Assembly: GCA_964498775.1 (NCBI GenBank)
Contig: CAZCJS010000002.1
Span: forward strand, 6,142 to 60,747
DNA from: an uncultured Armatimonadia bacterium
Lineage (GTDB): Bacteria > Armatimonadota > Zipacnadia > Zipacnadales > UBA11051
Length of the DNA stretch: 54,606 nucleotides
Direction: 5' to 3'
Shown: positions 11,790 through 54,606 of the stretch, one piece after another
Numbering within the stretch: the stretch's first letter is position 1
How the letters are laid out: every line of letters starts with the position of its first letter
Translations under genes and position numbers: made by a program
Notes under the pieces: model-generated
Told to the model about the DNA's origin: nothing
Databases searched by the model: none
The model's input: the letters and a program-made list of their open reading frames with translations, nothing else

Positions 11790-11863
11790 CCTTCAACCTC
11801 CACTCGATACCTGCGCCCGCCGGTTGCCGATGTCTCTTCGCCCTCCCGCTGTTGCCTTGCTTA

Positions 11864-11896: not shown

Positions 11897-11910
11897 GCTG
11901 TTCGCCTTAG

Positions 11911-13011: not shown

Positions 13012-13042
13012 CCATCCGACTCCTCACTTTTTGCCCTCTCTG

Positions 13043-13088
13043 CCGCTCCGCACAGCGGAGTGGGGGGGCTGGGGTATATGACCCCAAC
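13043..13088. repeat. short GC-rich palindromic intergenic element (REP-like), copy B
   Basis: CCGCTCCGCACAGCGGAGTGGGGGGG-ctggggtatatga-CCCCAAC just downstream of the phnX stop. Contains CTCCGC-aca-GCGGAG and TGGGGT-atatg-ACCCCA hairpins. Confidence 0.45.
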
Positions 13089-13148
13089 AGGGTGGGGGGG
13101 GGGAGCCCCACGGTATTGGTGTTGCCTCTCAGCCGTTCGCCATTACAG

Positions 13149-32002: not shown

Positions 32003-32023
32003 CCCGACGCGGAGAGGGTATTC

Positions 32024-32569: not shown

Positions 32570-32646
32570 GCACATTCGCAGGATAGCGAGGCGGCGGAGC
32601 GATTGAGCGTGGTACCCACGCCCCACCATCCATGGAGGGATAAGAG

Positions 32647-32862
32647 ATGCTGGTACTGACGCGGCGGCTGGATGAGGAAGTGGTAATCGGCGGGGAGATC
32701 AGTGTGAAGGTGGTGGAGATACGAGGCAACGTGGTGCGCCTCGGCTTCAGCGCGCCATCCGATGTCATCATCCACCGTAAAGAGGTATATGAGGAGATAG
32801 TGAGAGCAAATGAGGCGGCGGCAGGCATCAGCGCGGAGGAGATAGAGCAACTGCAGAAATAG
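32647..32862 (+). CDS. csrA: carbon storage regulator CsrA, flagellar type
   Basis: 71 aa. MLVLTRRLDEEVVIGGEISVKVVEIRGNVVRLGFSAPSDVIIHRKEVYEEI. GGAGGG upstream. Confidence 0.93.
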   Translation: MLVLTRRLDEEVVIGGEISVKVVEIRGNVVRLGFSAPSDVIIHRKEVYEEIVRANEAAAGISAEEIEQLQK

Positions 32863-32915
32863 TGGTAACTCGCCGCGTCGGCGGTAAGTTGTGACTGTTG
32901 GCGGCAAAAAATAGA

Positions 32916-32951
32916 AACCCCTGCGCCGGAGTATCGGCGGAGGGGTTCTTT
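32916..32951 (+). terminator. rho-independent terminator after csrA
   Basis: AACCCCTGCGCCG-gagtat-CGGCGGAGGGGTT (13-bp stem with one mismatch) followed by CTTT. About 55 nt after the csrA stop. Confidence 0.6.
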
Positions 32952-33080
32952 GAGGGTCGCAATCGCGGCTATAGGCATCAGGAGACTGCAGGCGTGTCTG
33001 AGGTCACGGCTGCAGCCGCGTGCATGCAATGGTGCCGGAGAGCTGTCGGGGGGGGGGAAACTTGTGCTTTTTGGGGCAAG

Positions 33081-33111
33081 TAACTTCAGAAAGGCGACGG
33101 GTAGCCGATAA
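33081..33111 (+). promoter_or_regulatory. possible sigma-28 type promoter of flagellin copy 1 (good -10, poor -35)
   Basis: GCCGATAA (8/8) at 33104-33111. At the canonical N15 distance the -35 reads TTCA; TAAC lies 4 nt further upstream. It would give a ~390 nt leader. Confidence 0.35.
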
Positions 33112-33454
33112 TCATAAGTGCCGGACTGCCTGAGGCGACGTAGCCGAGGCAGACAATTGAGGGCCCGAGGTGATCTTAGGGGAAGACCCCGGGCCCGCTC
33201 CTGGGTGGGAGAGGCGAGCTTTCGTGTGACCCGGCATGACTCGCTATAGTCACTTAAGGATGCTAGGCACCCTCCGGGATAGCACACGTTTCGCCGTTTT
33301 GTTTGTTGCAGTTTCTATGCCAAATGCGGAAAAAGCATTCTGGCGGGGCATGGCAATAAATCTCAAAGTAACCCGGGGAGGTGACGGAAAGAGAACTGAC
33401 GTGACCCGGAATGGGAGCCTTGCGAAGTACTTTTCGTATGCTGTCTGCAACCAC

Positions 33455-37165: not shown

Positions 37166-37192
37166 TAAAGAACTCGCCTGAAATGGCGATGA
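37166..37192 (+). promoter_or_regulatory. sigma-28 type promoter candidate for fliD-fliS
   Basis: TAAA-N15-GGCGATGA (6/8 in the -10 element). About 100 nt upstream of the fliD ATG and downstream of the flagellin 2 terminator. Confidence 0.45.
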
Positions 37193-37290
37193 ACATATGG
37201 GGTACAAGCTTCGCTTGCGCCAAGCCTGGGGTATTCTGGACATCCCACGGCGCACCCGCGGAACGGTGCCAGGCTTGTAGGAGGAGAATC

Positions 37291-39617: not shown

Positions 39618-40043
39618 GTGGATATGATAGATGGCTACAACGCAGGAAAGCAGGGCTACCCGAAGGTTTACCAGCAGGTGCAGACGCAGGCGGCAGACGA
39701 GAAGCAATTGCTGGTGCTGCTGTTCGATGGGGCGACCCGCCTGCTGCGGGATGGTCGCCGCTTTCTGGTAGCACACAAGTATGAACAATGGGCCGAGTGC
39801 AGCAACCGCGTGCGGCGGATACTCAGCGAGTTGATACTGGCACTTGATGAGGGGGCAGCTCCCGAGCTGTGTGGGTCCTTGAAGGCCCTCTATGTGTACG
39901 TGCAGCGCCTGATCACCGAGGGCGGCCTCGAGGAGGACACCGACAAGCTCGAGGAAGCCATCGAGCTGCTGCAACAGCTCGGCTCGGCATGGAAAGAGGC
40001 AAGATTAACATGCTCCAGTCAGAGAACGCAGAACGCTGCCTGA
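39618..40043 (+). CDS. fliS: flagellin-specific chaperone FliS
   Basis: 141 aa. QQVQTQAADEKQLLVLLFDGATRLLRDG...YEQWAECSNRVRRILSELILALD...LKALYVYVQRLITEG. AGGAAG lies 7 nt before the GTG. Confidence 0.85.
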   Translation: MDMIDGYNAGKQGYPKVYQQVQTQAADEKQLLVLLFDGATRLLRDGRRFLVAHKYEQWAECSNRVRRILSELILALDEGAAPELCGSLKALYVYVQRLITEGGLEEDTDKLEEAIELLQQLGSAWKEARLTCSSQRTQNAA

Positions 40044-40411
40044 GCTCCGGAGGTGTGTTGCCGGCAGAGGCGCAAGATGTGGTCGCTGAATTCCTGCAAC
40101 AGATCGAGCAGCTCTACGATGGACTGATTCGTTACCTGGAGCGGACTTCGTGCGATAAGACTGAGCCGGCCGCGGTCTCGGGACTGCTGCAACAACTGCA
40201 ATTGCTGCTGCTCGGCCTCGATAAGGCGATAGATATGGCGCTGTCGGCGGGAACGCCGCCAGAGCAGCTTGAGGATGTCATCGTGCGAATTGATAATTCA
40301 CACCGGCAGTGCCACGAGATGCTGCAGTCACGCGCCGCAGAGCTTGCGGAGAGAATACTGGCGCTGAGCGACGGCCGCCAGCGTCAGAACGCATATCTAC
40401 AGCATAGTTAA
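40010..40411 (+). CDS. hypothetical helical protein, FliT-like position
   Basis: About 133 aa from ATG 40010, overlapping the fliS 3' end by 34 nt. Leu/Gln-rich helices (VAEFLQQIEQLYDGLIRYLE..LLQQLQLLLLGLDKAID). Function is guessed only from the fliD-fliS-fliT gene order seen in other bacteria. Confidence 0.35.
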   Translation: MLQSENAERCLSSGGVLPAEAQDVVAEFLQQIEQLYDGLIRYLERTSCDKTEPAAVSGLLQQLQLLLLGLDKAIDMALSAGTPPEQLEDVIVRIDNSHRQCHEMLQSRAAELAERILALSDGRQRQNAYLQHS

Positions 40412-40427: not shown

Positions 40428-42113
40428 ATGAAGTGGAGGATAGGCCAACAGATAAAGCATACTCCATGGGTGGCGGCTGTGGGTCTCTTGGTGCTGATTG
40501 CGGGGGGGACCTCCCCGACTCAAGGTATGCCTGTGCTTAGGAACCTGCAGAGCAAGCTCGACATCGCGAGTGAGTTGCGGGCGCGAAGGGCTGGCGCGGC
40601 CGAACAGGTCAAACCTCCACAGCTCGTTGCACGGTGTTGGATAGATACCTCCAAAACCGAGAATTCCTCAGAAGAACTATCTCCACGCGGACGGCGGCGC
40701 AGAAATTTGAATGCGGCGGCGGCACGTCTCAATGGCGCTGCTGTCTGGCCGGGGAGAGCAACGGGCGTCGTCGCAGATGTCTTGTTGCCACTGCGGCCCG
40801 CAGATGGATTGCACTCCGATGGTTTCTGCTTTGCTCCCGGCAAGCCAGGAGTGGCGATCTGCCTGGGAGCCGGGGCAGAAGACCTACTCCAGGAAGTGGC
40901 GGTGCTGGCTCGTCAAGCTGGTCTACGGGCGGAATGGATTGCGCTGTCGGCCAATAGCCGGCGGTTGCTACCATTCGAGCGGGAACTGCGGCTGCTCTCA
41001 TGCGACGGGGCGGTCTATTACTTCGCGGCACGGCAATGGCGGGATGGGTACGATGTGGCCGTGTGGCGGCAGAGGCTCTCGGAGAAAGTGCTGAAACTGG
41101 CGGCAACGCAGCGAGACGTACAGCCGCTGCGACGGCCTTATGTGACTGTCGCCGCAGTCGGAGACTTGATGCCGGCAGGAGTGGTGCAGACGCGGTTGCT
41201 GCAGGGTGGGGAAGAGGCGCTAAAATCGGTGGCTGAAGTCACGGCGACGGCTGATGTGGCGATAGGCAATTTGGAGTGCCCTCTTACTGACGCGAGGACG
41301 CCGACGCCGCTGAAGAGCAGCCGCGAACTCGCCGCGCGACAGGAGTTCGTGTTCAAGGCGCGACCGCAAGCAGGACGACGACTGGTGCAGAAGCTGGGGC
41401 TGGACATCGTGAGCCTGGCGAATAACCATATTCTCGACTACCAGAGTGCCGGGCTGGAAGATACACAGGCGCATCTGCGAGCGGCGGGTGTGAAGTACAG
41501 CGGCGCAGGGACGCTCAGTGAGGCGAGGAGGCCTGCTATCGTCACGCGGAGGAGCGTCAGAGTGGCCGTGCTGAGTTATGTGGCGGCGGATACGCTGCCT
41601 CGGGCGAGTAGTTTTGCGGCAACCGGCACGCGCCCCGGACCGGCTATGATACGACGCGATCGGCAGGGAGTCACGAAAGCCGGCAGGACGATGATAGCAG
41701 CCGATATCGCAGCAGCTCAGGCCGTCGCCGATATCGTTATCATCGGGCTGCATTGGGGAGAGGAAGGGAGTGCGGAAGTGCGGCCCGGGCAACGGGAACT
41801 GGCGCACTTCTGCATTGACCGGGGTGCGGACATGGTTTGGGGCCATCATCCCCATTGTCTGCAGCCGGTGGAAATATACAAGGAGAAACTCATTGCATAT
41901 AGTCTGGGGAACTTTGTGTTCGCGACACCGGCGCGGGAATGCCTACAGCGGACCGGGATTCTAATAGCGTGTTTTGACACAAGAGGGCTGATAGCGGCAA
42001 GTCTGGTGACGGCGGCTATCGGGCATCCGAACAGCAGGCTGACTGATGCGCCGTATGGATTGCCGGTATTGGTGGGAGATAGTGGCGGAATGAGAACGGC
42101 GGCAACCCGATGA
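40428..42113 (+). CDS. CapA/PGA_cap family metallophosphoesterase-like protein with an uncharacterised N-terminal ~230 aa
   Basis: 561 aa with an N-terminal TM/signal segment. The C-terminal half carries VAAVGDLMPA, GNLECPLTD, DIVSLANNHILDYQSAGLEDT, VAVLSY, IIGLHWGEEGS, DMVWGHHPHCLQPVE and AYSLGNFVF, which together form the CapA-family pattern. Confidence 0.75.
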   Translation: MKWRIGQQIKHTPWVAAVGLLVLIAGGTSPTQGMPVLRNLQSKLDIASELRARRAGAAEQVKPPQLVARCWIDTSKTENSSEELSPRGRRRRNLNAAAARLNGAAVWPGRATGVVADVLLPLRPADGLHSDGFCFAPGKPGVAICLGAGAEDLLQEVAVLARQAGLRAEWIALSANSRRLLPFERELRLLSCDGAVYYFAARQWRDGYDVAVWRQRLSEKVLKLAATQRDVQPLRRPYVTVAAVGDLMPAGVVQTRLLQGGEEALKSVAEVTATADVAIGNLECPLTDARTPTPLKSSRELAARQEFVFKARPQAGRRLVQKLGLDIVSLANNHILDYQSAGLEDTQAHLRAAGVKYSGAGTLSEARRPAIVTRRSVRVAVLSYVAADTLPRASSFAATGTRPGPAMIRRDRQGVTKAGRTMIAADIAAAQAVADIVIIGLHWGEEGSAEVRPGQRELAHFCIDRGADMVWGHHPHCLQPVEIYKEKLIAYSLGNFVFATPARECLQRTGILIACFDTRGLIAASLVTAAIGHPNSRLTDAPYGLPVLVGDSGGMRTAATR

Positions 42114-42121: not shown

Positions 42122-42901
42122 CTATGCAATCGGGAAGACGTCGTAGTCGTGGGCAATGTCAAAAGGGAAATTCAAGTGCTCCTCGCACATGCCGCGTAAG
42201 ATAGCTTCGCCCTCGTCGTGCCATGGATCATAAATGTGATTCAGGATCAGCCGCCCGATGTCTCTATCTCCGATGAATGGCAACACTTGCTCCGGCTTGA
42301 TGTGGGTCATCTCCATGACCAGGACATCAACATGCTCGGTCAGAATATCGCCCAGGTTGCGGAAATCCGATGGCTGATCGCCTGAGAAAGCAATGCGCCT
42401 GCGGTCGCCCGTCGCCGGCTGTCCGGTGACGTCGAAAATGAAGGAAAAAGCGGTCGCTCGTTGCGGATCCATGTGCCCGCTGTTCACTGCGGTCACAGTC
42501 ACATATTCGTCCTCGTAGATGAGCCCCGGTTCTCTTATCCCCTTGACCTGGAGATCGAAACGGACTGCATCGGCGGGTATGTGCATCGCGGCAAGCCAGT
42601 TGAGAAAGGGGTATTTGCCCTCCGGCGGCATGAAGCAGGTGAGGGTGCGGTCTGGATCGGCGAAGCGCTGGTAAATGAGCTTGATCAGTTGCGGGAGACC
42701 GCCGACATGATCGCCGTGCATGTGGGTGATGAAGGCGGCGCGAAGGAGTGTGATGTCCTTCTCGAGGCGCCAGAGAGTTGCGGCAGCCGGCTCGCCACAA
42801 TCAATGATGTAAGCGGCCTCACCCACTTCGAGAAGCGTGGAAGTCTGATAGCGGCTGTGAGTGGGTGCGCCATGGGAGGTGCCCAGGGTCGTAATCTGCA
42901 T
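42122..42901 (-). CDS. MBL-fold metallo-hydrolase
   Basis: 259 aa. YIIDCGEP...AFITHMHGDHVGGLPQL (HxHxDH motif), later His and Asp ligands (VNSGHM, FSGDQ, VMEMTH). Convergent with the CapA gene, with 8 nt between the stops. Confidence 0.8.
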   Translation of the reverse strand: MQITTLGTSHGAPTHSRYQTSTLLEVGEAAYIIDCGEPAAATLWRLEKDITLLRAAFITHMHGDHVGGLPQLIKLIYQRFADPDRTLTCFMPPEGKYPFLNWLAAMHIPADAVRFDLQVKGIREPGLIYEDEYVTVTAVNSGHMDPQRATAFSFIFDVTGQPATGDRRRIAFSGDQPSDFRNLGDILTEHVDVLVMEMTHIKPEQVLPFIGDRDIGRLILNHIYDPWHDEGEAILRGMCEEHLNFPFDIAHDYDVFPIA

Positions 42902-43092
42902 CAGATGCTCCGTGTCGGTCGGATCTTTGTGGAAGCGACTGACGCCAATTCGCGGAGCGATAATTGTTTACCTGCCTGGCAGGACATAGAATCAGCGATG
43001 GTGAATTAGTAGTTAGTAGCGTCTGCGAGTGGCGGTAGTAGATGTCCGGTGCGGGCGAGAATGCGACGGCGAAGCATAGAGGAGGAAGTGGC

Positions 43093-45144
43093 ATGAAGGG
43101 TTTACGTGTCGGACTCGTGGTTGGGCTGTTGGTTGCTTTTGTGGGGATAGGGGTGACGCAGCCAAAGCCGAGGCTGAAGACACCCATCAGGACAATTAAA
43201 GCGACACCGCTAGCGCTGAACAACCAGTTCCAGCATGTGCTGAAGACCCATAAGGTACCGACGCAAGCGCAGGCGCCCGCACTTGCCAAATTCCGGGCGT
43301 TGCCGAACGGCCTGCAGAGGGACCTGCTGGAGGTAATGGATGCGAAGGCCGCGGCAAAGAACAATCTGCCTGTGGAGGTACTGCCGCAGAATAAGTACAA
43401 GATAGTGAAAGCAGCAAGGCCGCACCTGGTTCTGCAGCGGCGGATCACTGGCTTCTTCCCTGACAAGGGCACTCCCAACGGTTGGGTCTATGTCTACACA
43501 TTGCCTCGGGCAGGTGAGGGTAGTCAGGTGCTTTTCGACGGAGCAGCGCAAACGACGCATTATCTCAACTTCGATTTCGAGTTCTTCCCCAATACGCTGG
43601 CGTTTCAGGTACCGGCAACAACGCCCCTGGCCACGGATCATGACGTGAGTGTGCAGTACGCGGGGGTTACCGAGGTGGTTGGCCCGGTCTCATACCGGAT
43701 CGTGGCGCCGCGTGGTTACCGGGGCTACTGGGGCTGGAAATTTTCCAACTTCAGCGACCCGACGATTCCGTGGGCGTGCTATCGGGATTTCTTCGGCGCG
43801 TCGGCGGTTGAATACACGAATGGGTCGCACCGGCCGGCAGCCCAGGCGTGGTATGACTCGACATACAAGGGTATCGGCGGAGGCGGCAACTGCTACGGAA
43901 TGAGCGTGTCAAGCTTGCGGGAACGCAACGATAATATCGGCGGCGTACACAGCGCCTGGTTTGCGGGCCACACTGAGAGCTATGTGTGGTTGTATCCCTG
44001 GCTTGCTCAGACGAAGGAGACTGTCCAGGAATATCAGGGTGGCCAGGCCAGCGCGGAAATGGCGGCCCAGATCAACCACTACTACAATCACCAGAACCAC
44101 CGCCAGGCGTGGGAGCGGGTCCGCGACCTGGTGACGACGAGCGATAACCGGCCGGTCATGGGCTTCTGGTTCGCCGGCGGGGGCGGTCATGCGACGGTGC
44201 CGTACCAGACGGAGGTCGTCGGTGATGCGCACCGGATCATCATGTATGATAACAACCGTCCGTATGCGGAGAATGAGACAAGCGGGGCAGACCCGAGTGT
44301 CGCGACGGTCGGCTGGGCTGCTAACAGCTTCAGCTACGGGACCGGAAACAAAATGATCTGCATGTCTTACCAGGAGTGCACCCAGCCTCAGCACCTGCCG
44401 GCTGCAGCGACAGGCGGAGGCGGTATGGGCATGATGGCGGCGGTGTTCGAAGGCGGCGCCCAGGTGACACAGATACAAGACGCGCAGGGACGCCGGTTCT
44501 TCAATGCGGACGGCTCCATCAATACGGATGCGGCCACGCGGATACCAGATTCGATGAAGTTCGAGCCGCTGATGGGTGGGCCGCTGCCCCCTGGCTATCC
44601 CGGAATCTATCTCTTCAATCAGAGCCAGGGCAAGGACCTCAGCTTCACCGTCGCCGGAGCCGGCCAGAAGATGGCCAAGGTGTTCATGCAGGGCGACATG
44701 ATGGAGGTGGAGTTCCAGGGCACAGGAGAGATCATTCTGAACAATATCCTCACGCCCACGCGGACGTTTAGGATCCCCAACCCCTCGGCGCTGCGGCCGA
44801 CCTCGATCCGCTGCATCAAGGTGCTGGCGGTTGACCGGAGCTTCCAGTTGAATAACTTCGCCAACATCGGCAACCAGCCGCTGGCGCTGCTCTCGAAGCC
44901 CGATGGCAGCTCGCTGGAGGTGCAGTCCGGCGAGGCACTGCAGTTCAACATGCAGTTGAGTACTTTCTCCCGTGGGCAGATCATGCAGGGAACGTTCGGG
45001 AATGTCGAGCTGGCGGCGAACAGCAAGGGTACGCTGCGGCCGATGGACTGGAACAACCTGCCCGCAGGAGAGTTGAGCCTGGAGCTGCGGAATCTGCAGA
45101 ATAACCAGAAGATCCGGGATGCGAAGATACGGCCCGGAGGCTAG
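43093..45144 (+). CDS. secreted or membrane-anchored hypothetical protein with an IPT/TIG-like segment and a possible papain-like Cys-His-Asp core
   Basis: 683 aa from ATG 43093 (GGAGGAAG upstream). N-terminal hydrophobic segment LRVGLVVGLLVAFVGIGV. ITGFFPDKGTPNGWVYVYT...VSVQYAGV..VGPVSYRIV is IPT-like. Candidate catalytic residues in GGGGNCYGMSVS and GGGGHATVPYQTEVVGDAHRIIMYDNN. Followed by a strong terminator. Confidence 0.6.
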   Translation: MKGLRVGLVVGLLVAFVGIGVTQPKPRLKTPIRTIKATPLALNNQFQHVLKTHKVPTQAQAPALAKFRALPNGLQRDLLEVMDAKAAAKNNLPVEVLPQNKYKIVKAARPHLVLQRRITGFFPDKGTPNGWVYVYTLPRAGEGSQVLFDGAAQTTHYLNFDFEFFPNTLAFQVPATTPLATDHDVSVQYAGVTEVVGPVSYRIVAPRGYRGYWGWKFSNFSDPTIPWACYRDFFGASAVEYTNGSHRPAAQAWYDSTYKGIGGGGNCYGMSVSSLRERNDNIGGVHSAWFAGHTESYVWLYPWLAQTKETVQEYQGGQASAEMAAQINHYYNHQNHRQAWERVRDLVTTSDNRPVMGFWFAGGGGHATVPYQTEVVGDAHRIIMYDNNRPYAENETSGADPSVATVGWAANSFSYGTGNKMICMSYQECTQPQHLPAAATGGGGMGMMAAVFEGGAQVTQIQDAQGRRFFNADGSINTDAATRIPDSMKFEPLMGGPLPPGYPGIYLFNQSQGKDLSFTVAGAGQKMAKVFMQGDMMEVEFQGTGEIILNNILTPTRTFRIPNPSALRPTSIRCIKVLAVDRSFQLNNFANIGNQPLALLSKPDGSSLEVQSGEALQFNMQLSTFSRGQIMQGTFGNVELAANSKGTLRPMDWNNLPAGELSLELRNLQNNQKIRDAKIRPGG

Positions 45145-45174
45145 ACGAAACAGAGACGTAGGAAGATGACGGAT

Positions 45175-45208
45175 GCCGGGGACAGATGGATGTCTCCGGC
45201 ATTTTTTT
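45175..45208 (+). terminator. rho-independent terminator after the 683-aa secreted protein gene
   Basis: GCCGGGGACA-gatgga-TGTCTCCGGC (10-bp stem with one G-U pair) followed by ATTTTTTT. Confidence 0.85.
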
Positions 45209-45492
45209 CAGTGCCAAGCTGGAAGCCGAGGCTGCAGGAGGACTGGGGATACGCGCGGGGCTTTGTTCCACGTTAACATAATCCTCATTATAATGACATG
45301 CGTTGCGCACGGCATAAGCGGAATCTGACCGGTCTCACCAGCTGCTTTATCTGCACGAAAATATTCTGCGCGCGCTCAAGAGTATCTCAATAATCGCTCA
45401 ATAACTATTGATTTAAGCTAGCGGACTGAGGGAAACTGGGGGGGTGGCAAGTGCAGAGTGTCTGCGTAGCCGTAGCCAATCCGGAGGGGGAA

Positions 45493-45900
45493 ATGACCAT
45501 GTTCAGGGCGCTGATCGTAGATGATGACCGCGACCTGCGAGAATTGATAGCTCTGCGTTTGGGCCAACTCGATGTGGAGGTCGCGCAGGCGGCGAACGGC
45601 CAGAAGGCGCTGAAGGCGTTGTGCGAGGCCTCGGCAGAAGAGCAGCCGTTCGGTGTCATACTCCTGGATGTCGCGATGCCGGTGATTGACGGGTGGCAAG
45701 TCCTCGAAGCGCTGAAAGCAAATCCGCTGTGGCAAAATACCCCAATAATCATGGTCACCGGTATCGCCACCAGTGCTGAAGAGATAACCCGGATGAGCAA
45801 CTACGGCGTACTCTATACTGATAAGGGTAGTGACTGTGTGCAGTTTGTCTCCTCCATGGTCGGTAGGCTGATGGAAGAGCAGCCAAGTGAAGTAGGATAG
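45493..45900 (+). CDS. stand-alone response regulator receiver (CheY-like) protein
   Basis: 135 aa from ATG 45493 (GGAGGGGG upstream). RALIVDDDRDLRELIALRL, phospho-acceptor context VILLDVAMPVIDGWQVL, TPIIMVTG. No output domain. Confidence 0.85.
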   Translation: MTMFRALIVDDDRDLRELIALRLGQLDVEVAQAANGQKALKALCEASAEEQPFGVILLDVAMPVIDGWQVLEALKANPLWQNTPIIMVTGIATSAEEITRMSNYGVLYTDKGSDCVQFVSSMVGRLMEEQPSEVG

Positions 45901-46168: not shown

Positions 46169-47476
46169 ATGCAGAGATGGCTGATGGCGCTGGGAGCGGT
46201 GGGGCTGGCGATGTGCCTGTGTGTTGCGGCGAGCTACGCCCAGGGGGAGCCATGGACGTTGAGGGTAGGAGTGGCGACGACGCTGATAACACCGGAGGGG
46301 CCGGTGTGGCTGGGCGGATTCGCGAGCCGGAAGGAGCCGACCAAGGGCGAGGTCTATAAGGACCTCGTCGCTTCATGTGTGGTTTTTGACAACGGACAAA
46401 CACGGGTTGGGCTGATGGTGATGGACATGATCAATATCCACCAGCAGCAACTCGATGACATCCGAGATGCGGCGGAGGAGGTTGGTATCCCGCGCCACCA
46501 GATGATGGTGAATCATTCGCACACGCACTGCGGGCCGAGCTTACACGATAAGAACCCGGACTTCTTGGTGCAGTTCAAGACGGAAACATGCGCACTGCCG
46601 CAGAAGGCAGTTGATAATTTGCAGGAGGCGAAGCTGGACTTCACCGTCGGGACCTGCATGATGGGCGTCAATCGGCGGCAGATCGGGCCTGATGGGAAGT
46701 GCCTCGGGATGCGGCCGGACCCGCGCGGGCCGATTGACCCGGATGTGCCGGTACTGCGGGTACTCACGCCGGAGGGCGAGGCTCGGGCCGTAATCTTCGG
46801 ATATGCGTGTCATCCGACCACGATGGGCGGGATGAGGACCGGACCTGACTTCCCCGGCTATGCGCGGGACTGGATAGCGGCGGCTTACGGCGAGGGCTGT
46901 CAGCCGATGTATCTACAGGGCTGCTGCGGGGATATCAAGCCGCGTTATGTAACGGTGCGGCCACCGTACAATGATGAGAATAAGCCGAGTGGGCGGTTCG
47001 GATATGTGCTCCTCGAGGAGCCGCTGGATACGGTCAAGGAGGTCGGCCATGAGCTCGGCCGGGCAGTCGTGTGCGCGACATGTGTGCCGCCGCCTCCTGT
47101 AACCGGTACGGAGTTGGGGGGCGCCAGTGAGATGCTCGACCTGCCGACGAAGAAAGACCCTGACAATGCCATCCAGAAGGAAATCCAGGTGCTGCGAATC
47201 GGGAATGTCTATATCATCGGAATGAATGACGAAGTTCTTGTGGACATCGGGCTGCGGATCAAGCGAGAGCTGGGCGCGCAGGAATGGTTCGATGGGTCAT
47301 ATGCGTGGGTCAACGGCTACACGAATCGGCGGCAGCTTGGAAGCTATGTGCCCGCGGCGGCCACATTCCCGGAGGAAGGCTATGAGGTGAGGACAAGTCG
47401 CGTCGGGCCCGGGGCGGAGAATATCCTGGTAGAAAATGCTATTGAGTTGACAAAAAGACTCTGTGATGCAAAATAG
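46169..47476 (+). CDS. secreted neutral/alkaline-ceramidase-like metallohydrolase, paralog 1
   Basis: 435 aa from ATG 46169. Signal peptide MQRWLMALGAVGLAMCLCVAASYAQG. Motifs VGVATTLITPEG, NHSHTHCGP, VNRRQ, IDPDVPVLRVLTPEGEARAVIFGYACHPTTMGG, GPDFPGYARDW, LQGCCGDIKPRY, NGYTNRRQLGSYVP..FPEEGYEV. Confidence 0.85.
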   Translation: MQRWLMALGAVGLAMCLCVAASYAQGEPWTLRVGVATTLITPEGPVWLGGFASRKEPTKGEVYKDLVASCVVFDNGQTRVGLMVMDMINIHQQQLDDIRDAAEEVGIPRHQMMVNHSHTHCGPSLHDKNPDFLVQFKTETCALPQKAVDNLQEAKLDFTVGTCMMGVNRRQIGPDGKCLGMRPDPRGPIDPDVPVLRVLTPEGEARAVIFGYACHPTTMGGMRTGPDFPGYARDWIAAAYGEGCQPMYLQGCCGDIKPRYVTVRPPYNDENKPSGRFGYVLLEEPLDTVKEVGHELGRAVVCATCVPPPPVTGTELGGASEMLDLPTKKDPDNAIQKEIQVLRIGNVYIIGMNDEVLVDIGLRIKRELGAQEWFDGSYAWVNGYTNRRQLGSYVPAAATFPEEGYEVRTSRVGPGAENILVENAIELTKRLCDAK

Positions 47477-47482
47477 AGGCGG

Positions 47483-48796
47483 GTGAATAACGCGATGACC
47501 AGGAAGCTGCATGTGCGGATTCAAGTTGCCATTACAGTAGCGCTGGTGGCGATGCTTTGTATGACCACGGCCCAAGCGCAAGTTCCGGAGACGCTGAAGG
47601 TTGGTCTGGCGGTCGTTGATATCACGCCCGAAGGGTCAGTCTATATGCGGGGCTTCTCCGGACGAGACAAGAAGCCGTCCGAAGGTGTCTATAAAGAGAT
47701 AACCGCCTCGTGTATCGTCTTTGACAATGGTGAGACGCGAGCGGGCATCGTGGCCGTCAATGTCTGTCGGCTGGGTAAGCGCTACTTCGACCGGCTGCAT
47801 GAAATCGGTGAGACGTTCGGCATTCCCTTCGAGCATCTGCTCATCAACGTCTCGCACACCCACTGTGGCCCGCACGTTGATACCAATAAGAATGCGGAAT
47901 ATGTGGAGAAAATATTTGAGCCGCGATTGCTCAGCCTCATCGAGAAAGCTGTGGCCGACTTGCAGGAGGCGAGCCTGGACTACACAGTTGGGTCCTGCTC
48001 GATAGCAGTCAATCGCCGGCAACTTGGAGCGGATGGGAAGGTAGTTGCTTTTGCCCCTGAGCCTCGGAAGTCAATTGACCCCGATGTGCCGATCATGCGG
48101 GTGCTCACGCCGGAGGGTAAGGTGAGGGCGGTTCTGTTCGGCTATGCATGCCACCCGACGACTATGGGAGGCTACCTAATCGGTCCTGATTATCCGGGTT
48201 TCGCCAAGGACTGGATCGCGGCGGCCTATCCGGAATGTCTGCCGATCTTCTTACAGGGCTGTGGGGGCGACATCAAGTCCCGCTACACAAAAATCAAGCA
48301 GCCAATCGGCGATCCGACCAAGGCTGAGGGCCGCTTCGGTCACGTGCTGCTGGAGCCGGTCAATATCGTCGCCGAAATCGGGCATACACTGGGACGAGCG
48401 GTCATCACGGCGACGTGTGTGCCGCCGCAACCGGTAGGAACATACCTAGGGGGCATATTTGACGATCTGAGCCTGCCGGACAGGAAGGAGCCGGAAACGG
48501 CTTCCCATCCGAATGATGTGCAGGTATTGCGGATCGGAGACATCTACATCATCGGGATGTATTCGGAAATATGCGTGGATATCGGCCTGCAGATCAAACG
48601 GGAATTGGCTGGCCTGAAGGTGTGGACGAATGGCTACTCACATTGGGGTGGCGGGTACCTGACCAATGTGCAGGGCTGTGAAGAGGGTGGATATGAGGCG
48701 AATAACTGGTTCCACCCGACAGCCGCCGACATCATGATGAAGAGAGTAGTGGAAATGACGAGGGAGCTGGCGGCGCGGACAGACAACGCAAAATGA
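47483..48796 (+). CDS. ceramidase-like metallohydrolase, paralog 2
   Basis: 437 aa (GTG 47483, or ATG 47495). Signal peptide ending TTAQAQ. VGLAVVDITPEG, NVSHTHCGP, VNRRQ, IDPDVPIMRVLTPEGKVRAVLFGYACHPTTMGG, LQGCGGDIKSRY, NGYSHWGGGYL..CEEGGYEA. 6 nt after the paralog 1 stop. Confidence 0.85.
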   Translation: MNNAMTRKLHVRIQVAITVALVAMLCMTTAQAQVPETLKVGLAVVDITPEGSVYMRGFSGRDKKPSEGVYKEITASCIVFDNGETRAGIVAVNVCRLGKRYFDRLHEIGETFGIPFEHLLINVSHTHCGPHVDTNKNAEYVEKIFEPRLLSLIEKAVADLQEASLDYTVGSCSIAVNRRQLGADGKVVAFAPEPRKSIDPDVPIMRVLTPEGKVRAVLFGYACHPTTMGGYLIGPDYPGFAKDWIAAAYPECLPIFLQGCGGDIKSRYTKIKQPIGDPTKAEGRFGHVLLEPVNIVAEIGHTLGRAVITATCVPPQPVGTYLGGIFDDLSLPDRKEPETASHPNDVQVLRIGDIYIIGMYSEICVDIGLQIKRELAGLKVWTNGYSHWGGGYLTNVQGCEEGGYEANNWFHPTAADIMMKRVVEMTRELAARTDNAK

Positions 48797-48802
48797 GGAG
48801 AC

Positions 48803-50098
48803 ATGAATATGAGACCGGGATACTTTACAGCGATTGTCGTGGGGCTGCTGGTGGTCTGCGCGGTCATGTGCCAGGCGCAGGCGCAAGAGCCGACACCACT
48901 GAAGGTAGGTCTGGCAACGGTGGATATTACGCCGGAGGGGTCGGTGTTCATGGCCGGCTTCTCGGGGCGGAAGAAACCTTCCGAGGGTGTCTATAAGGAG
49001 CTGACGGCTTCCTGCGTGGTCTTTGACAATGGCGAGACACGCACGGGGATAATGGCAATAGACGTACTGAAGCTCGGTATGGAGCATGTCGAGGCGGTGC
49101 GGGAGACTGCGGAAAAGTTTGGCATCCCACCGGAGCAGATGATGCTAAACGGGTCACATACACACTGCGGGCCGGATCTTTGGCACAAGGCGAATGTTGA
49201 GAGCGGCTATGCTAAATTCTTCATGGAGAAGATCTGTAGCCTGATTGAGCCGGCGGTGGCGGACCTGCAGCCCGCAAAGCTGGATTTCACGATAGGTAGC
49301 TCGACGATGGCCGTAAATCGGCGCCAGTTGAATCCGGAGGGCAAGTGTATCGGGATGAGGCCGGAACCGCGCGGCCCCATTGATATGGACGTCCCGGTAT
49401 TGCGGGTCCTGACGCCGGAGGGCGAGGTCCGGGCGGTGATATTCGGCTATGCCTGCCATCCGACGACGATGGGCGGATACCTCATCGGGCCCGACTTTCC
49501 TGGCTATGCACGCGACTGGATTGCGGCGGCGTACCCGGATTGCTTGCCGGTATTTCTGCAGGGCTGCGGTGGCGACATCAAGCCGCGCTATGTGCGACTC
49601 CAAGCGCCATACAACGATGCGGATAAAGCCCCCGGGTACTTCGGCTATGTGCTGCTCGAGGAGCCGCTGGATGCGGTGAAAGAGATGGGGCATGAACTGG
49701 GCCGCGCCGTAGTCACGGCGGCATGTGTGCCGTGCCGGCCGTTGGAGCCCGTACTCGCCGGCGCGCATGAGTTTGCGCTGCTGCCACTGAAGAAGAAGGA
49801 GCCCACCCGAGACGCGCATGAAACGGAAGTGCAGGCGCTGCGGATCGGGGACCTCTACATTATCGGCATGAACGGCGAGGTCTGTGTGGACATCGGGCTG
49901 CGGATCAAGCGGGAACTCGCCGACCTGACGACATGGGTGAACGGCTATACGAATCGGCGGCTGGCCTACATAGTCGCGGCAAAAACCATGCCGGAGGAAG
50001 GCTACGAAGTCAGAGTCAGTCCCTTTGACGAACGGGCCGAGGAGCCACTGGTGGCGAAGGCAGTCGAACTGGCGAGGAGAGTAGCTGCCGGCCGGTAG
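48803..50098 (+). CDS. ceramidase-like metallohydrolase, paralog 3
   Basis: 431 aa (ATG 48803, or ATG 48809 with better SD spacing). Signal peptide ending CQAQAQ. VGLATVDITPEG, NGSHTHCGP, VNRRQ, IDMDVPVLRVLTPEGEVRAVIFGYACHPTTMGG, LQGCGGDIKPRY, NGYTNRRLAYIV..MPEEGYEV. Confidence 0.85.
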   Translation: MNMRPGYFTAIVVGLLVVCAVMCQAQAQEPTPLKVGLATVDITPEGSVFMAGFSGRKKPSEGVYKELTASCVVFDNGETRTGIMAIDVLKLGMEHVEAVRETAEKFGIPPEQMMLNGSHTHCGPDLWHKANVESGYAKFFMEKICSLIEPAVADLQPAKLDFTIGSSTMAVNRRQLNPEGKCIGMRPEPRGPIDMDVPVLRVLTPEGEVRAVIFGYACHPTTMGGYLIGPDFPGYARDWIAAAYPDCLPVFLQGCGGDIKPRYVRLQAPYNDADKAPGYFGYVLLEEPLDAVKEMGHELGRAVVTAACVPCRPLEPVLAGAHEFALLPLKKKEPTRDAHETEVQALRIGDLYIIGMNGEVCVDIGLRIKRELADLTTWVNGYTNRRLAYIVAAKTMPEEGYEVRVSPFDERAEEPLVAKAVELARRVAAGR

Positions 50099-50123
50099 TT
50101 ACAGCCGGAACGGAGATGCGCTG

Positions 50124-51407
50124 ATGGAGATGGAAAATAGTCTCATGAGTGTAGCAGTATTGGTGCTGGTGCTGTGTCTGAGTGCTGCGGCGTGTCATGC
50201 GCAGGGAGCAGAAACCGAGCCGCTAAGGGTGGGTATGGCCAGGGTTGAGATTACTCCGCAGGAGCTGGCGTATATGGCTGGTTTCGCCGGACGTAAGGAG
50301 AGGTCCACCGGCGCGTACAAGGACATTACCGCCTCATGCCTCGTGTTTGACAACGGTGTGATGCGCCTTGGCCTGATGGCCGTGGATGTGCTGTTCATAG
50401 ACCGCTATTACAAAACCGACCTGGGGCCGGTGCAACTTACCGCGATACGAAAGGCGGCCGAGGCGGTCGGTATCGCGCCGGAGCGCATGATGATTAATGC
50501 CTCGCATACCCACTGTGGGCCGAAATTCGAGGACAATGGGGATTATCCGGAGGTATTCATAGAGAAGGTCTGCGGTCTGCTGGAAGCGGCGGTTGCGGAT
50601 TTGCAGCCGGCGAGGCTGGACTATACGGTGGGCACCTGCAGTATGGCGATCAACCGGCGGCGCACGAATGAGGAGGGCAAGTGTACCGGGATGAGGCCAA
50701 CGCCACTCAAGCCGATTGACATGGAGGTGCCGGTGATGCGAGTGGTGTCTCCAGAAGGCCAGGCGCGGGCAATCATATTTGGTTATGCGTGCCATCCCTC
50801 GACTATGGGAGGCCTGGAGATCGGCCCGGACTATCCGGGATTCGCGCGCGACTGGGTCGAAGCAGCCTATGGCGAGGGTTGCATGGCGACATTCTTACAG
50901 GGCTGTGGGGGTGACATCAAGCCGCGTAATGTCTCGGGGACATCGAGGTTCCGCAGTGGGCCGCTCGAGGCAGTGGAAGAACTTGGACACGAACTGGGAC
51001 GAGCAGTAGTGACGGCAACATGCGTGCCGCTGGAGCCAATGGCCGCCGCTGCAGACGGAGGCGTGCCGCTGGCCGCAACCAGTCAAATTGTGCCGCTGCC
51101 CAGCAAGAAAGACCCCAGTAAGCCGTACCCGATCGAGATGCAGGTGCTGCGTATCGGTGACGTGTATATTGTGGGTATGAACGGCGAAATCTGCGTGGAG
51201 ATCGGCCTGCACATCAAGCGCGAACTGGCGGACCTGAAGCTGTTTGTGATTGGTTACTGCAACCAGCGTGTGAGTTACATACCGGCGGCTTCGTCCTATC
51301 CCGAGGGGGGCTATGAGGTGAACTGTACGCGGGTGGCGCCGACGGGAGAGGACATGATTGTAGCCAAGGCTGTTGAGATGACGCGGTCGTTGGCGACCCT
51401 CAAGTAG
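50124..51407 (+). CDS. ceramidase-like metallohydrolase, paralog 4
   Basis: 427 aa. Signal peptide ending AACHAQG. VGMARVEITPQE, NASHTHCGP, INRRR, IDMEVPVMRVVSPEGQARAIIFGYACHPSTMGG, LQGCGGDIKPRN, IGYCNQRVSYIP..YPEGGYEV. Confidence 0.85.
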   Translation: MEMENSLMSVAVLVLVLCLSAAACHAQGAETEPLRVGMARVEITPQELAYMAGFAGRKERSTGAYKDITASCLVFDNGVMRLGLMAVDVLFIDRYYKTDLGPVQLTAIRKAAEAVGIAPERMMINASHTHCGPKFEDNGDYPEVFIEKVCGLLEAAVADLQPARLDYTVGTCSMAINRRRTNEEGKCTGMRPTPLKPIDMEVPVMRVVSPEGQARAIIFGYACHPSTMGGLEIGPDYPGFARDWVEAAYGEGCMATFLQGCGGDIKPRNVSGTSRFRSGPLEAVEELGHELGRAVVTATCVPLEPMAAAADGGVPLAATSQIVPLPSKKDPSKPYPIEMQVLRIGDVYIVGMNGEICVEIGLHIKRELADLKLFVIGYCNQRVSYIPAASSYPEGGYEVNCTRVAPTGEDMIVAKAVEMTRSLATLK

Positions 51408-51435
51408 TCGTGGTCCAGGCCAAGGAGATGAGAAC

Positions 51436-52704
51436 ATGGTAGGAAGCAGAGTTGCGGTTTTCTCAGTGCTGGTACTGCTATTGTGCCTGAGCACTGCGAT
51501 TGCTCATGCTCAAGGCGCAGAGGCCGGGGCCCTGAAGGTCGGGATCGCAGCGGTGGACATCACGCCCACAGAATCGGTATATATGCAGGGCTTCTCCGGA
51601 CGTGACAAAAACCCTTCCACAGGCGTGTACAAGGAGATCGAGGCATCCTGCGTTGTGTTTGATAATGGCGTCACGCGTGTCGGCCTGATGGCGATAGATG
51701 TCTGCAAGACCGACGTCTCCCAGGTGGCAAAGGTGCGGGAGGTGGCGGAAAAGCTCAGTATCCCGCCCCAGCACATGATGATAAACAGCTCCCACAGCCA
51801 CTGCGGGCCGAAGGTGATGGGCAACCAGAATCCCGACTATGTACCGATATTCGAGGAGCGTATCTGCGGGCTCCTACAGACAGCGGTTGACGATCTGCAG
51901 GAGGCGACGCTCGACTATACGGTCGGATTATCTACGATGGCCGTCAACCGTCGGCAACTCAACGAAGAAGGCAAATACATAGGCATGAGGCCGGAGCCGC
52001 GTAAGCCGATTGATCCGGAGGTGCCCGTGCTGCGAGTCCTGTCACCGGATGGGCAGGTGCGCGCAGTAATTTTCGGCTATGCGTGTCATCCTACGACGAT
52101 GGGTGGGTATGAGATTGGTCCGGATTTCGTAGGCTATGCGCGTGACTGGGTCGAGGCGGCCTATCCGGGCGCGATGGCGATGTTCATACAGGGATGCGGC
52201 GGGGACATCAAGCCCCGCTACTCTCTACCCAGTGGACGCTTTGGTTACGTCTTACTGGAGGCGAAGGAGACGGTCGCGGAGGTGGGACATGAGTTGGGGC
52301 GAGCAGTGATCGCCGCCACCGCGGTTCCGCCGTCGCCCCTAGGCACCTACCTCGGCGGTCGCAGCGGGATGGCCGGAATACCGACGGTGAAACAAGTTGA
52401 GGATACGCCGCAGGGTGGCCTCTTCCCCATCGAGGTCCAGGTCCTGCGCATCGGTGACGTCTATATCGTCGGTCTCAACGGCGAGATTCTCGTCGAGATC
52501 GGCCTGCACATCAAGCGGGAACTGGCGGACCTGAAGATGTGGGTCAACGGGTACTGCAACCGCGACCTGAGCTATATCGCTAACGCCGCCGCCTGGGACG
52601 AGGGCGGGTATGAGATCACGGCAGGCTGGACGACGGCAGACGCAGAGGGCATCCTGGTCGCCAAGGCCGTTGAACTAACGAGGGAACTGGCATCTGCACA
52701 CTAA
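51436..52704 (+). CDS. ceramidase-like metallohydrolase, paralog 5
   Basis: 422 aa with AAGGAG upstream. Signal peptide ending AIAHAQG. VGIAAVDITPTE, NSSHSHCGP, VNRRQ, IDPEVPVLRVLSPDGQVRAVIFGYACHPTTMGG, IQGCGGDIKPRY, NGYCNRDLSYIA..WDEGGYEI. Confidence 0.85.
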   Translation: MVGSRVAVFSVLVLLLCLSTAIAHAQGAEAGALKVGIAAVDITPTESVYMQGFSGRDKNPSTGVYKEIEASCVVFDNGVTRVGLMAIDVCKTDVSQVAKVREVAEKLSIPPQHMMINSSHSHCGPKVMGNQNPDYVPIFEERICGLLQTAVDDLQEATLDYTVGLSTMAVNRRQLNEEGKYIGMRPEPRKPIDPEVPVLRVLSPDGQVRAVIFGYACHPTTMGGYEIGPDFVGYARDWVEAAYPGAMAMFIQGCGGDIKPRYSLPSGRFGYVLLEAKETVAEVGHELGRAVIAATAVPPSPLGTYLGGRSGMAGIPTVKQVEDTPQGGLFPIEVQVLRIGDVYIVGLNGEILVEIGLHIKRELADLKMWVNGYCNRDLSYIANAAAWDEGGYEITAGWTTADAEGILVAKAVELTRELASAH

Positions 52705-52731
52705 GTTAGCATCAGAGAGGACTTGTTTGAG

Positions 52732-54054
52732 ATGCGAAGTAGATTTGGAGGCATTGTAGTATTAGCGCTGATGTTGTGGCTGGGCGCGGGCATCTGCCAT
52801 GCGCAGGCTGCCGAGGCAGGGCCGCTACAGGTCGGCATTGCGGTGGCGGACATTACTCCCGAAGGGCCGGTATGGATGGGCGGCTATGCCGCCCGCAATA
52901 AGCCGTCGGAGGGGACATACAAGGAGCTTACCGCCACGTGCGTAGTGTTTGACAATGGGCAGACCCGCGTGGCGTTCGTAGCCATTGATCTGGTCGCGAT
53001 ATACGAGAAGCAACTCGCCGACTTGCGGGCGACGGCGGCAAAGGCCGGCATCCCGCCACAGCATTTGATGACGAATGCGTCGCATACACACTGCGGACCC
53101 AGAGTGAGTCATAAAGACAACACCGAGTACACGGCATTGTTCCAGGAGCGGACGGACCCGCTCTTTGAGGCCGCAGTGGCGGATCTGCAACCGGCGGTGC
53201 TCGACTATACGGTTGGCTACTCCACGATGGCCGTGAACCGACGGCAACTCAATGACGAAGGCAAGTGCATCGGCATGAGGCCGGAGCCGCGCAAGCAGAT
53301 AGACCCGGATGTGCCGATTCTGCGCGTCCTGTCGCCGGAGGGCAACATTCGCGCCGTCATCTTCGGCTACGCCTGTCACCCGACGACGATGGGCGGGTAT
53401 CTGAATGGGCCGGACTACCCCGGCTTCGCCAGGGACTGGATCGCGGCGGCAATTCCCGACTGCACACCGGTGTTTCTGCAGGGCTGCGGTGGGGATATCA
53501 AACCCCGCTACTCAAAGACCAATGGCCGGTTCGGCTATGTAATGCTCGAGGCGATACCGACGACGGCCGAGATGGGCCACGAGTTGGGCCGGGCGGTAAT
53601 CGCCGCGTTGTGCGCACCCCCACCAGTCGTGCCGGCCGACCGCCCCACCGATCTGCAGGAAGCCGTGAAGATGCCGGTCACAATCGGGGGCATCGTCGAG
53701 CATATCCGCGTCCCCGACAAGGAGACGGAGGGCAAGACGCACCAGATCTACAATGGGGCCTGGCGGATCGGGGATGTCTATATCTTCGGAAGTCAGTGCG
53801 AGGTATGCTCCAATATCGGCCTGCGGATCAAGCGGGAACTTTCCGACCTTCGGGTCTGGACGAACGGCTATACGCACTGGGGTGGGGGCTACATACCCGA
53901 CGCCGCCTCGTATCCTGAGGAGGGCTACGAGATCAGGGTCAGCCGCGTGAGTCCCGCGACTGAGGACATCCTCGTCGGTAACGCCAAGCGGTACATCGCT
54001 GAGCTGCAGAAGACTCCGGTCCACAGCGAACCGATACCGGAGACGGGCGAATAA
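52732..54054 (+). CDS. ceramidase-like metallohydrolase, paralog 6
   Basis: 440 aa from ATG 52732 (the track ORF starts at TTG 52723). Signal peptide ending GICHAQA. VGIAVADITPEG, NASHTHCGP, VNRRQ, IDPDVPILRVLSPEGNIRAVIFGYACHPTTMGG, LQGCGGDIKPRY, NGYTHWGGGYIP..YPEEGYEI. Confidence 0.85.
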   Translation: MRSRFGGIVVLALMLWLGAGICHAQAAEAGPLQVGIAVADITPEGPVWMGGYAARNKPSEGTYKELTATCVVFDNGQTRVAFVAIDLVAIYEKQLADLRATAAKAGIPPQHLMTNASHTHCGPRVSHKDNTEYTALFQERTDPLFEAAVADLQPAVLDYTVGYSTMAVNRRQLNDEGKCIGMRPEPRKQIDPDVPILRVLSPEGNIRAVIFGYACHPTTMGGYLNGPDYPGFARDWIAAAIPDCTPVFLQGCGGDIKPRYSKTNGRFGYVMLEAIPTTAEMGHELGRAVIAALCAPPPVVPADRPTDLQEAVKMPVTIGGIVEHIRVPDKETEGKTHQIYNGAWRIGDVYIFGSQCEVCSNIGLRIKRELSDLRVWTNGYTHWGGGYIPDAASYPEEGYEIRVSRVSPATEDILVGNAKRYIAELQKTPVHSEPIPETGE

Positions 54055-54172: not shown

Positions 54173-54606
54173 ATGCAAAAGGTGTGTCTGGTGGTGGCTC
54201 TGCTGATGATTGGGACAATTGGCGCCGGCGCTAACTATGACAAGGAGCCCGATACCTTCTATCCGCCGGATGAAGATGTACAAGCTTCACTGGACGTGCT
54301 GCTGAGCATGAGGAAGCAGGCCGCCTTCGAAGGCCTGCTCAAGCCGCCGGACATCGAGCTCAAGCGTCAAGGCTTCGCGGCTGACCCGCAAAACTACGAG
54401 AAGAAATTCCGCGAAACCGCCGACTACTGGGCCAGCAAGAGCGACGAGTTCCTCCGCGACATGCTGCCTGCCGAGAACCCGCACATGCTGGTGCCCAGTT
54501 ATGCCAAGGGCTGCCCGCTGCATCTGGGCGGCGTACACACGATGGCCCCGATATGGGGGAAGCCAAATCACTTCCGCTGCCTCGTTGGGGGCGAGGAATG
54601 GGGTCC
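54173..54606 (+). CDS. secreted hypothetical protein (3' end lies outside the window)
   Basis: Not in the ORF track because no stop is reached. ATG 54173 follows GAGGTGG. My translation: MQKVCLVVALLMIGTIGAGANYDKEPDTFYPPDEDV...DMLPAENPHMLVPSYAKGCPLHLGGVHTMAPIWGKPNHFRCLVGGEEWG. Signal-peptide-like N-terminus, and the frame is open to the window edge. Confidence 0.55.
   Translation, partial: MQKVCLVVALLMIGTIGAGANYDKEPDTFYPPDEDVQASLDVLLSMRKQAAFEGLLKPPDIELKRQGFAADPQNYEKKFRETADYWASKSDEFLRDMLPAENPHMLVPSYAKGCPLHLGGVHTMAPIWGKPNHFRCLVGGEEWG

Follow-up and report, generated by a model that had tools for sequence, protein, structure and literature searches.

What does a bacterium do with six consecutive genes for ceramidase-like enzymes? 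The question is posed by a 54,606-nucleotide stretch of DNA from an uncultured Armatimonadia bacterium (contig CAZCJS010000002.1, positions 6,142 to 60,747; the whole stretch is termed the window), in which six consecutive open reading frames (ORFs) lie head to tail on the + strand between 46169 and 54054. The original prediction, made from the letters and their translations, took these to be secreted ceramidase-like metallohydrolases acting on a family of amide- or lipid-linked substrates. That reading ended at 54054, short of a conserved lyase-like partner gene that points to glycans. The position of the array beside this polysaccharide-lyase-like gene suggests that the amidases help to digest amide-decorated acidic sugar polymers, not ceramides, and we would give even chances to the six copies being glycan-associated amidohydrolases and not ceramidases.

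The array opens with copy 1 (46169–47476, 435 residues), a predicted exported ceramidase-fold Zn amidohydrolase whose signal peptide ends in SYA-QG. It is followed by copy 2 (47483–48796, 437 residues), copy 3 (48803–50098, 431 residues; the structure-modelled copy), copy 4 (50124–51407, 427 residues; lineage-specific and on the longest branch, with its catalytic residues intact), copy 5 (51436–52704, 422 residues) and copy 6 (52723–54054, 443 residues), copies 2 and 6 being of the HWGGGY type. These lengths follow our choice of starts; the public gene calls give 435, 433, 429, 427, 422 and 440 residues. Spacers between copies are 6, 6, 25, 28 and 18 nt, and a purine-rich motif resembling a Shine–Dalgarno (SD) sequence precedes every start (6/6). 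All six N-termini form a Sec-type signal peptide, with a hydrophobic core and then an A-x-A-type cleavage motif (AQA/AHA/YAQ). Tandem arrangement, SD-like motifs and export signals were all part of the original prediction and agree with our analysis.

The six proteins are collinear, sharing 50–61% pairwise identity and around 120 invariant columns in a MAFFT alignment. Every motif of the series previously quoted for them is present, save that copy 1 has L in place of D/E in VG.A..(D/E)ITP. The loops described as specific to subgroups are likewise found: copies 1 and 3 share PPYND...FGYVLLEEPLD, at a place where copy 2 carries an insert too, and copies 2 and 6 share HWGGGY. A search with a family hidden Markov model (HMM) returned exactly six copies in the window. 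A seventh copy downstream was considered and rejected, the next ORF belonging to a different family. The array recurs at 100% identity in four independent metagenome assemblies and is therefore not an assembly artefact.

Membership of the ceramidase family is where expectation and result part company. PF04734 (Ceramidase_alk, the N-terminal catalytic domain) does match all six copies (E 3.5e-12 to 2e-5), but its gathering score of 32.1 bits is passed only by copy 3 (46.2 bits, E 3.5e-12) and copy 5 (34.4 bits), with copies 1 (E 7.8e-6), 2, 4 and 6 lying beneath it at 23.8–31.4 bits. Against the NCBIfam neutral-ceramidase equivalog, whose cut-off is 1200 bits, the six score 20–42 bits. They are therefore distant relatives, not ceramidases by membership. 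No Pfam family other than PF04734 matches any of the six at E ≤ 1.

Structural comparison leads to the same superfamily. A profile of the six copies finds the Pseudomonas aeruginosa enzyme PaCDase in the PDB (2zws, E 9.8e-18, the match falling into two blocks and reaching both halves of the catalytic domain) and human neutral ceramidase (4wgk, E 1.7e-4). Copy 3, as modelled by AlphaFold2 from an alignment of 55 sequences (predicted local distance difference test score (pLDDT) 88, predicted template-modelling score (pTM) 0.87), matches the neutral ceramidases 2zws, 2zxc and 4wgk in Foldseek (E 1.5e-27 to 2.3e-24, TMq 0.72–0.74) and no other fold in the PDB, the next match having E > 2e-3. The alignment spans around half of the ceramidase chains (TMt 0.47–0.51). 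The C-terminal Ig-like tail domain is absent, as had been claimed, the proteins stopping about 30 residues past the GYE motif; about 70 residues are also lacking relative to PaCDase between its positions 258 and 385, in the middle of the catalytic domain.

The catalytic positions are all kept. PaCDase H97, H99, R160, H204, E411, Y448, Y460 and E461 align with copy 3 H119, H121, R174, H219, E359, Y389, Y401 and E402, and these eight columns of the HMM alignment are invariant in 6/6 copies and 55/55 homologues. Roles for the PaCDase residues were reportedly assigned in the crystal-structure work of Inoue et al. in 2009 and Airola et al. in 2015. We take H97, H204, E411 and Y448 to be the Zn ligands (the first His of HxH, the His of CHP, the Glu of GxxGE and a Tyr about 12 residues before GYE), with H99, R160 and Y460 catalytic. 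The earlier claim that all copies keep their metal-ligand positions thus stands for the positions themselves and needs one reassignment, the Tyr of ‘YE’ being presumably catalytic and not a Zn ligand. Judged by sequence and model, the six appear to be trimmed, competent-looking members of the neutral-ceramidase superfamily that are not ceramidases by membership tests, and we are highly confident in predicting that they are exported, active ceramidase-fold Zn amidohydrolases.

The superfamily is large, with 18,438 representative clusters (50% identity) at E ≤ 1e-3, true ceramidases included, and 1,796 at E ≤ 1e-30. Its best-scoring members are mostly of 410–490 residues and are labelled ‘hypothetical protein’ or ‘neutral ceramidase’ in databases. 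Fusions in the wider family (P0183, P0186, P0134, P0211, P0126/P0127) comprise RidA/L-PSP, Peptidase_M23 with PKD, DUF7133 with HEAT and cytochrome c, and tandem self-fusions of about 900 residues; they do not decide the substrate question. Our search of the available literature found no characterised short family member and no link between ceramidase and heparinase.

A clue to the substrate lies immediately downstream, in a gene that we found by comparing the cut ORF at the window’s end with other loci. This partner gene (54173–54606, + strand) starts 118 nt past copy 6, has a signal peptide and comprises the N-terminal 144 codons of an exported heparinase II/III-like protein (PL17-like fold) of about 1020 residues. 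A homology search with the 144-residue fragment returned nothing, and the full-length L008 orthologue as query gave matches; the fragment is 75–79% identical to the N-termini of full-length proteins (L008, P0270 and P0269). Orthologues of about 1020–1046 residues lie directly 3′ of the arrays in L008/L083, L013, L092 and L093. With an iterated profile, partner relatives are seen adjoining ceramidase-like genes, or in their vicinity, in 17 of 88 loci, mostly 0–41 nt away on the same strand, with distances of 1.5–6.4 kb in L031, L044, L072 and L075 and the opposite strand used in L038. The pairing crosses phyla: it is seen in Armatimonadota (L008, L013, L028, L031, L033, L035, L036 and L038), Verrucomicrobiota (L018), Bacteroidota (L047, L051, L072 and L075) and a haloarchaeon (L044).

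Bulk Pfam counts of flanking genes gave only weak signals because the partner is too divergent for Pfam. A precomputed match to PF07940 (Hepar_II_III_C) exists for 21/31 partner homologues (E 2.6e-8 for L018), some of which NCBI names heparinase II/III family protein; the closest orthologues (L008 and L013) have no PF07940 match at E ≤ 1. An AlphaFold2 model of P0270 (79% identical to the window fragment; pLDDT 88.9) consists of a helical toroid-type domain and then β-sandwich domains. Its best Foldseek match is a PL17 alginate lyase (8bdd, E 2.3e-22, TM 0.69 on target), followed by PL40 ulvan lyase and by heparinases or alginate lyases of PL12, PL15 and PL21, with E values up to 1e-10. The partner-family alignment contains invariant Tyr and His residues, which may or may not be those (Tyr/His and Asn) that serve β-elimination in PL17. 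With this lyase-like partner, the likely substrate class moves from lipids to glycans.

The pair can itself be multiplied. In the Armatimonadetes metagenome-assembled genome (MAG) NC_groundwater_1073 (JACQGM01; L031, L036, L028, L033 and L035), amidase and lyase-like genes have been multiplied as a unit in at least five loci, with up to three lyase-like paralogues per locus, the opposite of the six amidases and one lyase-like gene of the window.

Short spacers together with the lack of a + strand terminator-like site between 46169 and 54173 fit a single transcription unit, a layout already proposed for the array and one that would now take in the lyase-like gene. Rfam finds no riboswitch or known RNA in the 268-nt leader or the rest of the window.

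Neighbourhoods elsewhere are also of glycan type. In the Bacteroidota locus L072, SusC (Plug, CarbopepD_reg) and SusD lie directly 5′ of two ceramidase-like genes, Amidohydro_2, a heparinase-like gene and DegT, a DegT-type sugar aminotransferase; L047 has the same gene set with SusC. This SusC/SusD context, that of a polysaccharide utilization locus (PUL), is confined to distant Bacteroidota homologues, outside the window’s own phylum. Isolates of Cyclobacterium and Lunatimonas/Lunatibacter carry the same gene pair. Alone, the partner also occurs in glycan loci, with BNR sialidase-like, GH123, CBM9, Gfo/Idh/MocA, PcRGLX lyase-like and YdjC genes, and the neighbours of close amidase homologues include sulfatases, alginate lyase/heparinase domains, CBM4_9, GH123 and a PL8 lyase domain. 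In L092 the gene after the partner (L092:6753–8492) encodes a secreted right-handed β-helix protein (Beta_helix, Disaggr_assoc, fn3); by analogy, a β-helix gene may lie just past the end of this window.

How old is the array, and are its members all maintained? The closest genomes are Armatimonadota (Ca. Zipacnadia and Armatimonadia). In a neighbour-joining tree, copies 1, 2, 3, 5 and 6 each group with their own orthologue (84–86% identity) in a sister Zipacnadia MAG (L005/L006), with ratios of nonsynonymous to synonymous substitution (dN/dS) of 0.12–0.20. Orthologues were assigned to copy 1 in L006 (dN/dS 0.16), copy 2 in L006 (dN/dS 0.14) and L093 (85% identity), copy 3 in L005 and L092, copy 5 in L005 (dN/dS 0.12), L008, L007 and L092, and copy 6 in L006, L008, L013, L092 and L093 (dN/dS 0.13). 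Copy-5 and copy-6 types extend to Armatimonadia that are further removed, and sequences from Planctomycetota, about 70% identical, fall within the copy-6 clade; the copy-6 type is the most widely conserved and usually adjoins the lyase-like gene.

Between paralogues, dS is saturated (1.4–2.8) and DNA identity is 60–83%, values that rule out recent gene conversion or recent duplication, and no gene-conversion tracts were found among the six copies. The duplications are thus of ancient date, as the original prediction had it, and purifying selection acts on at least five of the copies.

Copy 4 stands apart, three related arrays having no orthologue of it. Both relatives that cover the junction between copy-3 and copy-5 types (L005/L006 and L092) lack it there, and in L001, an otherwise 100% identical assembly, it lacks 143 nt (window 50756–50898) with 3-nt microhomology at the junction. 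The deletion takes out the FGYACHP motif, with the CHP histidine that we take to be a Zn ligand, and puts the remainder out of frame; it is a null allele present in nature or else an assembly artefact. The view that none of the six is decayed is thus true of the window sequence, in which copy 4 is intact, yet copy 4 is the least constrained member. Array size had been flagged as a point on which relatives might differ, and both size and order vary freely among close relatives. The window has 1-2-3-4-5-6, and the sister MAG has five copies in the order M28 peptidase-3-5-1-2-6 (from two contigs overlapping by 260 nt at 97%). Other orders are those of L092 (...3-5-6), L093 (...2-6), L008 (M28-X-5-6) and L013 (unk700-6-5).

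From these observations we would propose the following. The six copies would be Sec-exported (periplasmic or surface) Zn-dependent amidohydrolases with neutral-ceramidase catalytic machinery on a trimmed scaffold, using a His/His/Glu/Tyr-bound Zn with His, Arg and Tyr helpers, and would be co-transcribed with the exported PL-fold (heparinase II/III / PL17-like) gene. The target of the unit could be an acidic amide-decorated glycan, for example a bacterial exopolysaccharide, a capsule or a glycosaminoglycan-like polymer. On such a polymer the amidases would hydrolyse off either the N-acyl groups of amino sugars or amino acids and amines held by an amide bond at C6 of a uronate, and the lyase-like protein would cut the uronate-containing backbone; the six anciently diverged isozymes would each suit other substituents or another sugar context. 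The array, the fold, the intact catalytic residues, the export signals, purifying selection on five copies and the linkage across phyla to the lyase-like gene and to SusC/SusD loci are observed; we infer that the substrate is a glycan, which kind of amide bond is cut and that the genes share a transcript. Suitable polymers are known: Vibrio polysaccharide (VPS) carries glycine in amide linkage at C6 of a GulNAcA residue (PMC11637428), and an N-lactyl group occurs in a capsular polysaccharide (PMC7281560).

A bolder version, which we hold only tentatively, would make the short ceramidase-fold proteins founders of an unrecognised family of carbohydrate-active amidases that strip amide substituents off acidic bacterial or host glycans together with a divergent PL-fold enzyme. 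The substituents would be amino acids or amino-alcohols attached at C6 of uronates, or else N-acyl groups of unusual kinds borne by amino sugars, and the six-gene array a panel of specificities for differently decorated polymers.

Several observations weigh against a role on glycans. The link is drawn entirely from gene neighbourhood, and the literature yielded no biochemical data for any short family member. Of the loci with adequate flanks, no more than roughly one in four to one in three has the partner nearby, a recurrent and not an obligatory association, and some single-copy homologues sit in unrelated contexts (for example L085). Neighbours of peptide or amide type recur as well: an M28 peptidase directly upstream (L083, L086 and L005), an M14-like protein, PGA_cap and the M23 fusion. 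The P0270 model also matches dermatan-sulfate epimerase, and the partner may itself be an epimerase, or not be catalytic at all. RbmB cuts VPS with the glycine amide still present (PMC11637428), so de-amidation is no general prerequisite for lyase action. Finally, residues fixed within orthologue groups and different between paralogues are not enriched near the catalytic residues (16/48 near versus 24/81 far; Fisher p = 0.70). We therefore make no claim of active-site-focused divergence and have no direct evidence for substrate diversification; a broadened substrate range may still be a reasonable reading of six separately conserved copies.

The surroundings in the window say something of the cell. 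A flagellar gene cluster takes up most of the window; it includes FlgH and FlgI, which point to a diderm envelope. The cluster occupies 1–32002 and 37183–39558 and is broken by non-flagellar genes: a GAF histidine kinase (1761–3092), URO-D-like, Zn-ADH and HAD genes (10716–13994, − strand) and a DUF1559/N-methyl pseudopilin-like gene (23386–24015). Two ORFs in or near the flagellar filament genes have no Pfam match (32022–33287, − strand, 421 residues; 39869–40411, + strand, 180 residues). The two flagellin genes themselves (33501–35015 and 35446–36960, + strand) are a tandem pair of 504 residues each with 98% protein and 96% DNA identity, a recent duplication as opposed to the ancient amidase paralogues; all 10 amino acid differences lie near the N- and C-terminal ends.

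After FliD the order is the 180-residue ORF, PGA_cap, an MBL-fold gene on the opposite strand, a 700-residue protein, a hairpin, a response regulator and the array. The exported PGA_cap (CapA-like) protein (40428–42113, + strand), encoded between the filament genes of the flagellum and the amidase region, has an N-terminal extension of about 240 residues that matches no family. The MBL-fold protein (42122–42901, − strand) gives a sub-threshold match to the anti-Pycsar Apyc1 family; it is 59% identical to the product of a gene two genes from a single amidase gene in a WS1-labelled MAG (L086), a case of synteny across distant lineages. The exported 700-residue protein (43042–45144, + strand) has no Pfam or PDB-sequence relative, and the C-terminus of its homologue (63% identity, L013:2–139) lies directly 5′ of the L013 array. 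In other relatives (L083 and L086) the same position is held by an unrelated M28/DUF4910 peptidase; the possibility that the 700-residue protein is itself a diverged M28 peptidase was ruled out (BLASTP E > 0.2). A terminator-like hairpin (45171–45204, + strand; 14-bp stem and T-run) closes this upstream gene. Directly upstream of the array is a receiver-only response regulator (45451–45900, + strand; PF00072, E 4e-18), which is also found there in L001 and L002, is not conserved 5′ of arrays in other species, and may or may not belong to the array’s unit.

Could the copies instead be what their fold most resembles, genuine lipid amidases? As minimal ceramidases, or as N-acyl-lipid or lipid A deacylases, they would harvest fatty acids bound as amides in membranes of prey or of the environment, with the six copies serving different acyl chains or head groups. 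Neutral ceramidases are their only structural and sequence relatives, the full catalytic constellation is kept, some sources label members ‘neutral ceramidase’, and one single-copy homologue adjoins a carboxylesterase. The proteins nevertheless lack both the C-terminal domain and the 70 or so residues of the mid-catalytic domain, and they score under or near the Pfam gathering score and far under the equivalog cut-off. The family is present in haloarchaea, whose membranes, to our knowledge, are without N-acyl lipids, and what recurs beside its genes is SusC/SusD and glycan-active proteins in place of lipases or lipid transporters. We judge a lipid substrate unlikely.

A peptide or pseudo-peptide substrate (peptidoglycan stems, poly-γ-glutamate, glycopeptides or peptide-decorated envelope polymers, with the nearby metallopeptidases taking part) draws on the M28 peptidase found directly 5′ of arrays in L083/L008, L086/L087 and L005, the M14-like protein near the L086 genes, the PGA_cap gene in the window and the fusion of M23 peptidase and PKD in the wider family. 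In the window, though, the M28 position is held by the unrelated 700-residue protein, and an opposite-strand gene and the terminator-like hairpin separate PGA_cap from the array; the cross-phylum lyase-like partner and the SusC/SusD context would also be left unexplained. This account seems quite improbable as it stands, and with an amino-acid-amidated glycan as substrate it would partly coincide with ours. The M28 peptidase that three relatives carry directly upstream is as compatible with a glycan decorated by amino acids or peptides as it is with a peptide amidase. The enzymes might, alternatively, remodel the cell’s own exopolysaccharide or envelope after export, like the N-deacetylases PgaB and Agd3, with the lyase-like protein as an AlgL-like trimming or release enzyme. 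Arrays in L083 and L086 do adjoin exopolysaccharide biosynthesis genes (two GT4, Wzy, pyruvyl transferase, Wzz and Poly_export), and the window array lies beside envelope and flagellar genes. Six diverged isozymes are, however, more than a biosynthetic role usually calls for, the window array has neither glycosyltransferase nor export genes at its side, close relatives differ freely in the size and order of their arrays, and the Bacteroidota pair is housed in SusC/SusD uptake loci, which are catabolic. Self-directed remodelling is, in our estimation, very unlikely.

A glycan amidase role would have consequences beyond this locus. Little is understood of how microbes break down heavily decorated bacterial exopolysaccharides, capsules and glycosaminoglycan-like polymers, in part because few enzymes that remove their amide decorations are known. 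If the short members are glycan amidases with a lyase-fold partner, the annotation of many PULs and metagenomes would have to be revisited, and glycan analysis and biofilm degradation would gain a new class of enzyme. The six separately conserved copies form a ready-made panel for mapping specificity, and the Cyclobacterium and Lunatimonas/Lunatibacter isolates with the gene pair make the question experimentally tractable.

Set against known systems, the array proteins share with neutral ceramidases (PaCDase 2ZWS/2ZXC and human ASAH2 4WGK) the fold of the catalytic domain, a collinear motif order and export by signal peptide. They differ in having only 16–21% identity, about 400 mature residues against about 650 in ceramidase, neither the Ig-like C-terminal domain nor the stretch of about 70 residues, and glycan-active genomic partners. 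The partner, for its part, is some 300 residues longer than PL17, has extra N- and C-terminal β domains and is only 14–16% identical to the lyases that it matches. Pairs of a de-protecting enzyme and a lyase are well known: pectin methylesterase (CE8) acts with pectate lyase, and polysaccharide N-deacetylases are found in CE4, CE14 and CE18. By functional analogy, the pair in the window may resemble such systems, in which a substituent-removing hydrolase and a backbone-cutting enzyme, both exported and encoded in PUL-type loci, act on a uronate or amino-sugar polymer; the fold of the array proteins is unrelated to the CE families, and the bond cut would be an amide. The superfamily and an ordinary expansion of a gene family are thus familiar; what is new is an uncharacterised subfamily and an apparently unreported gene partnership.

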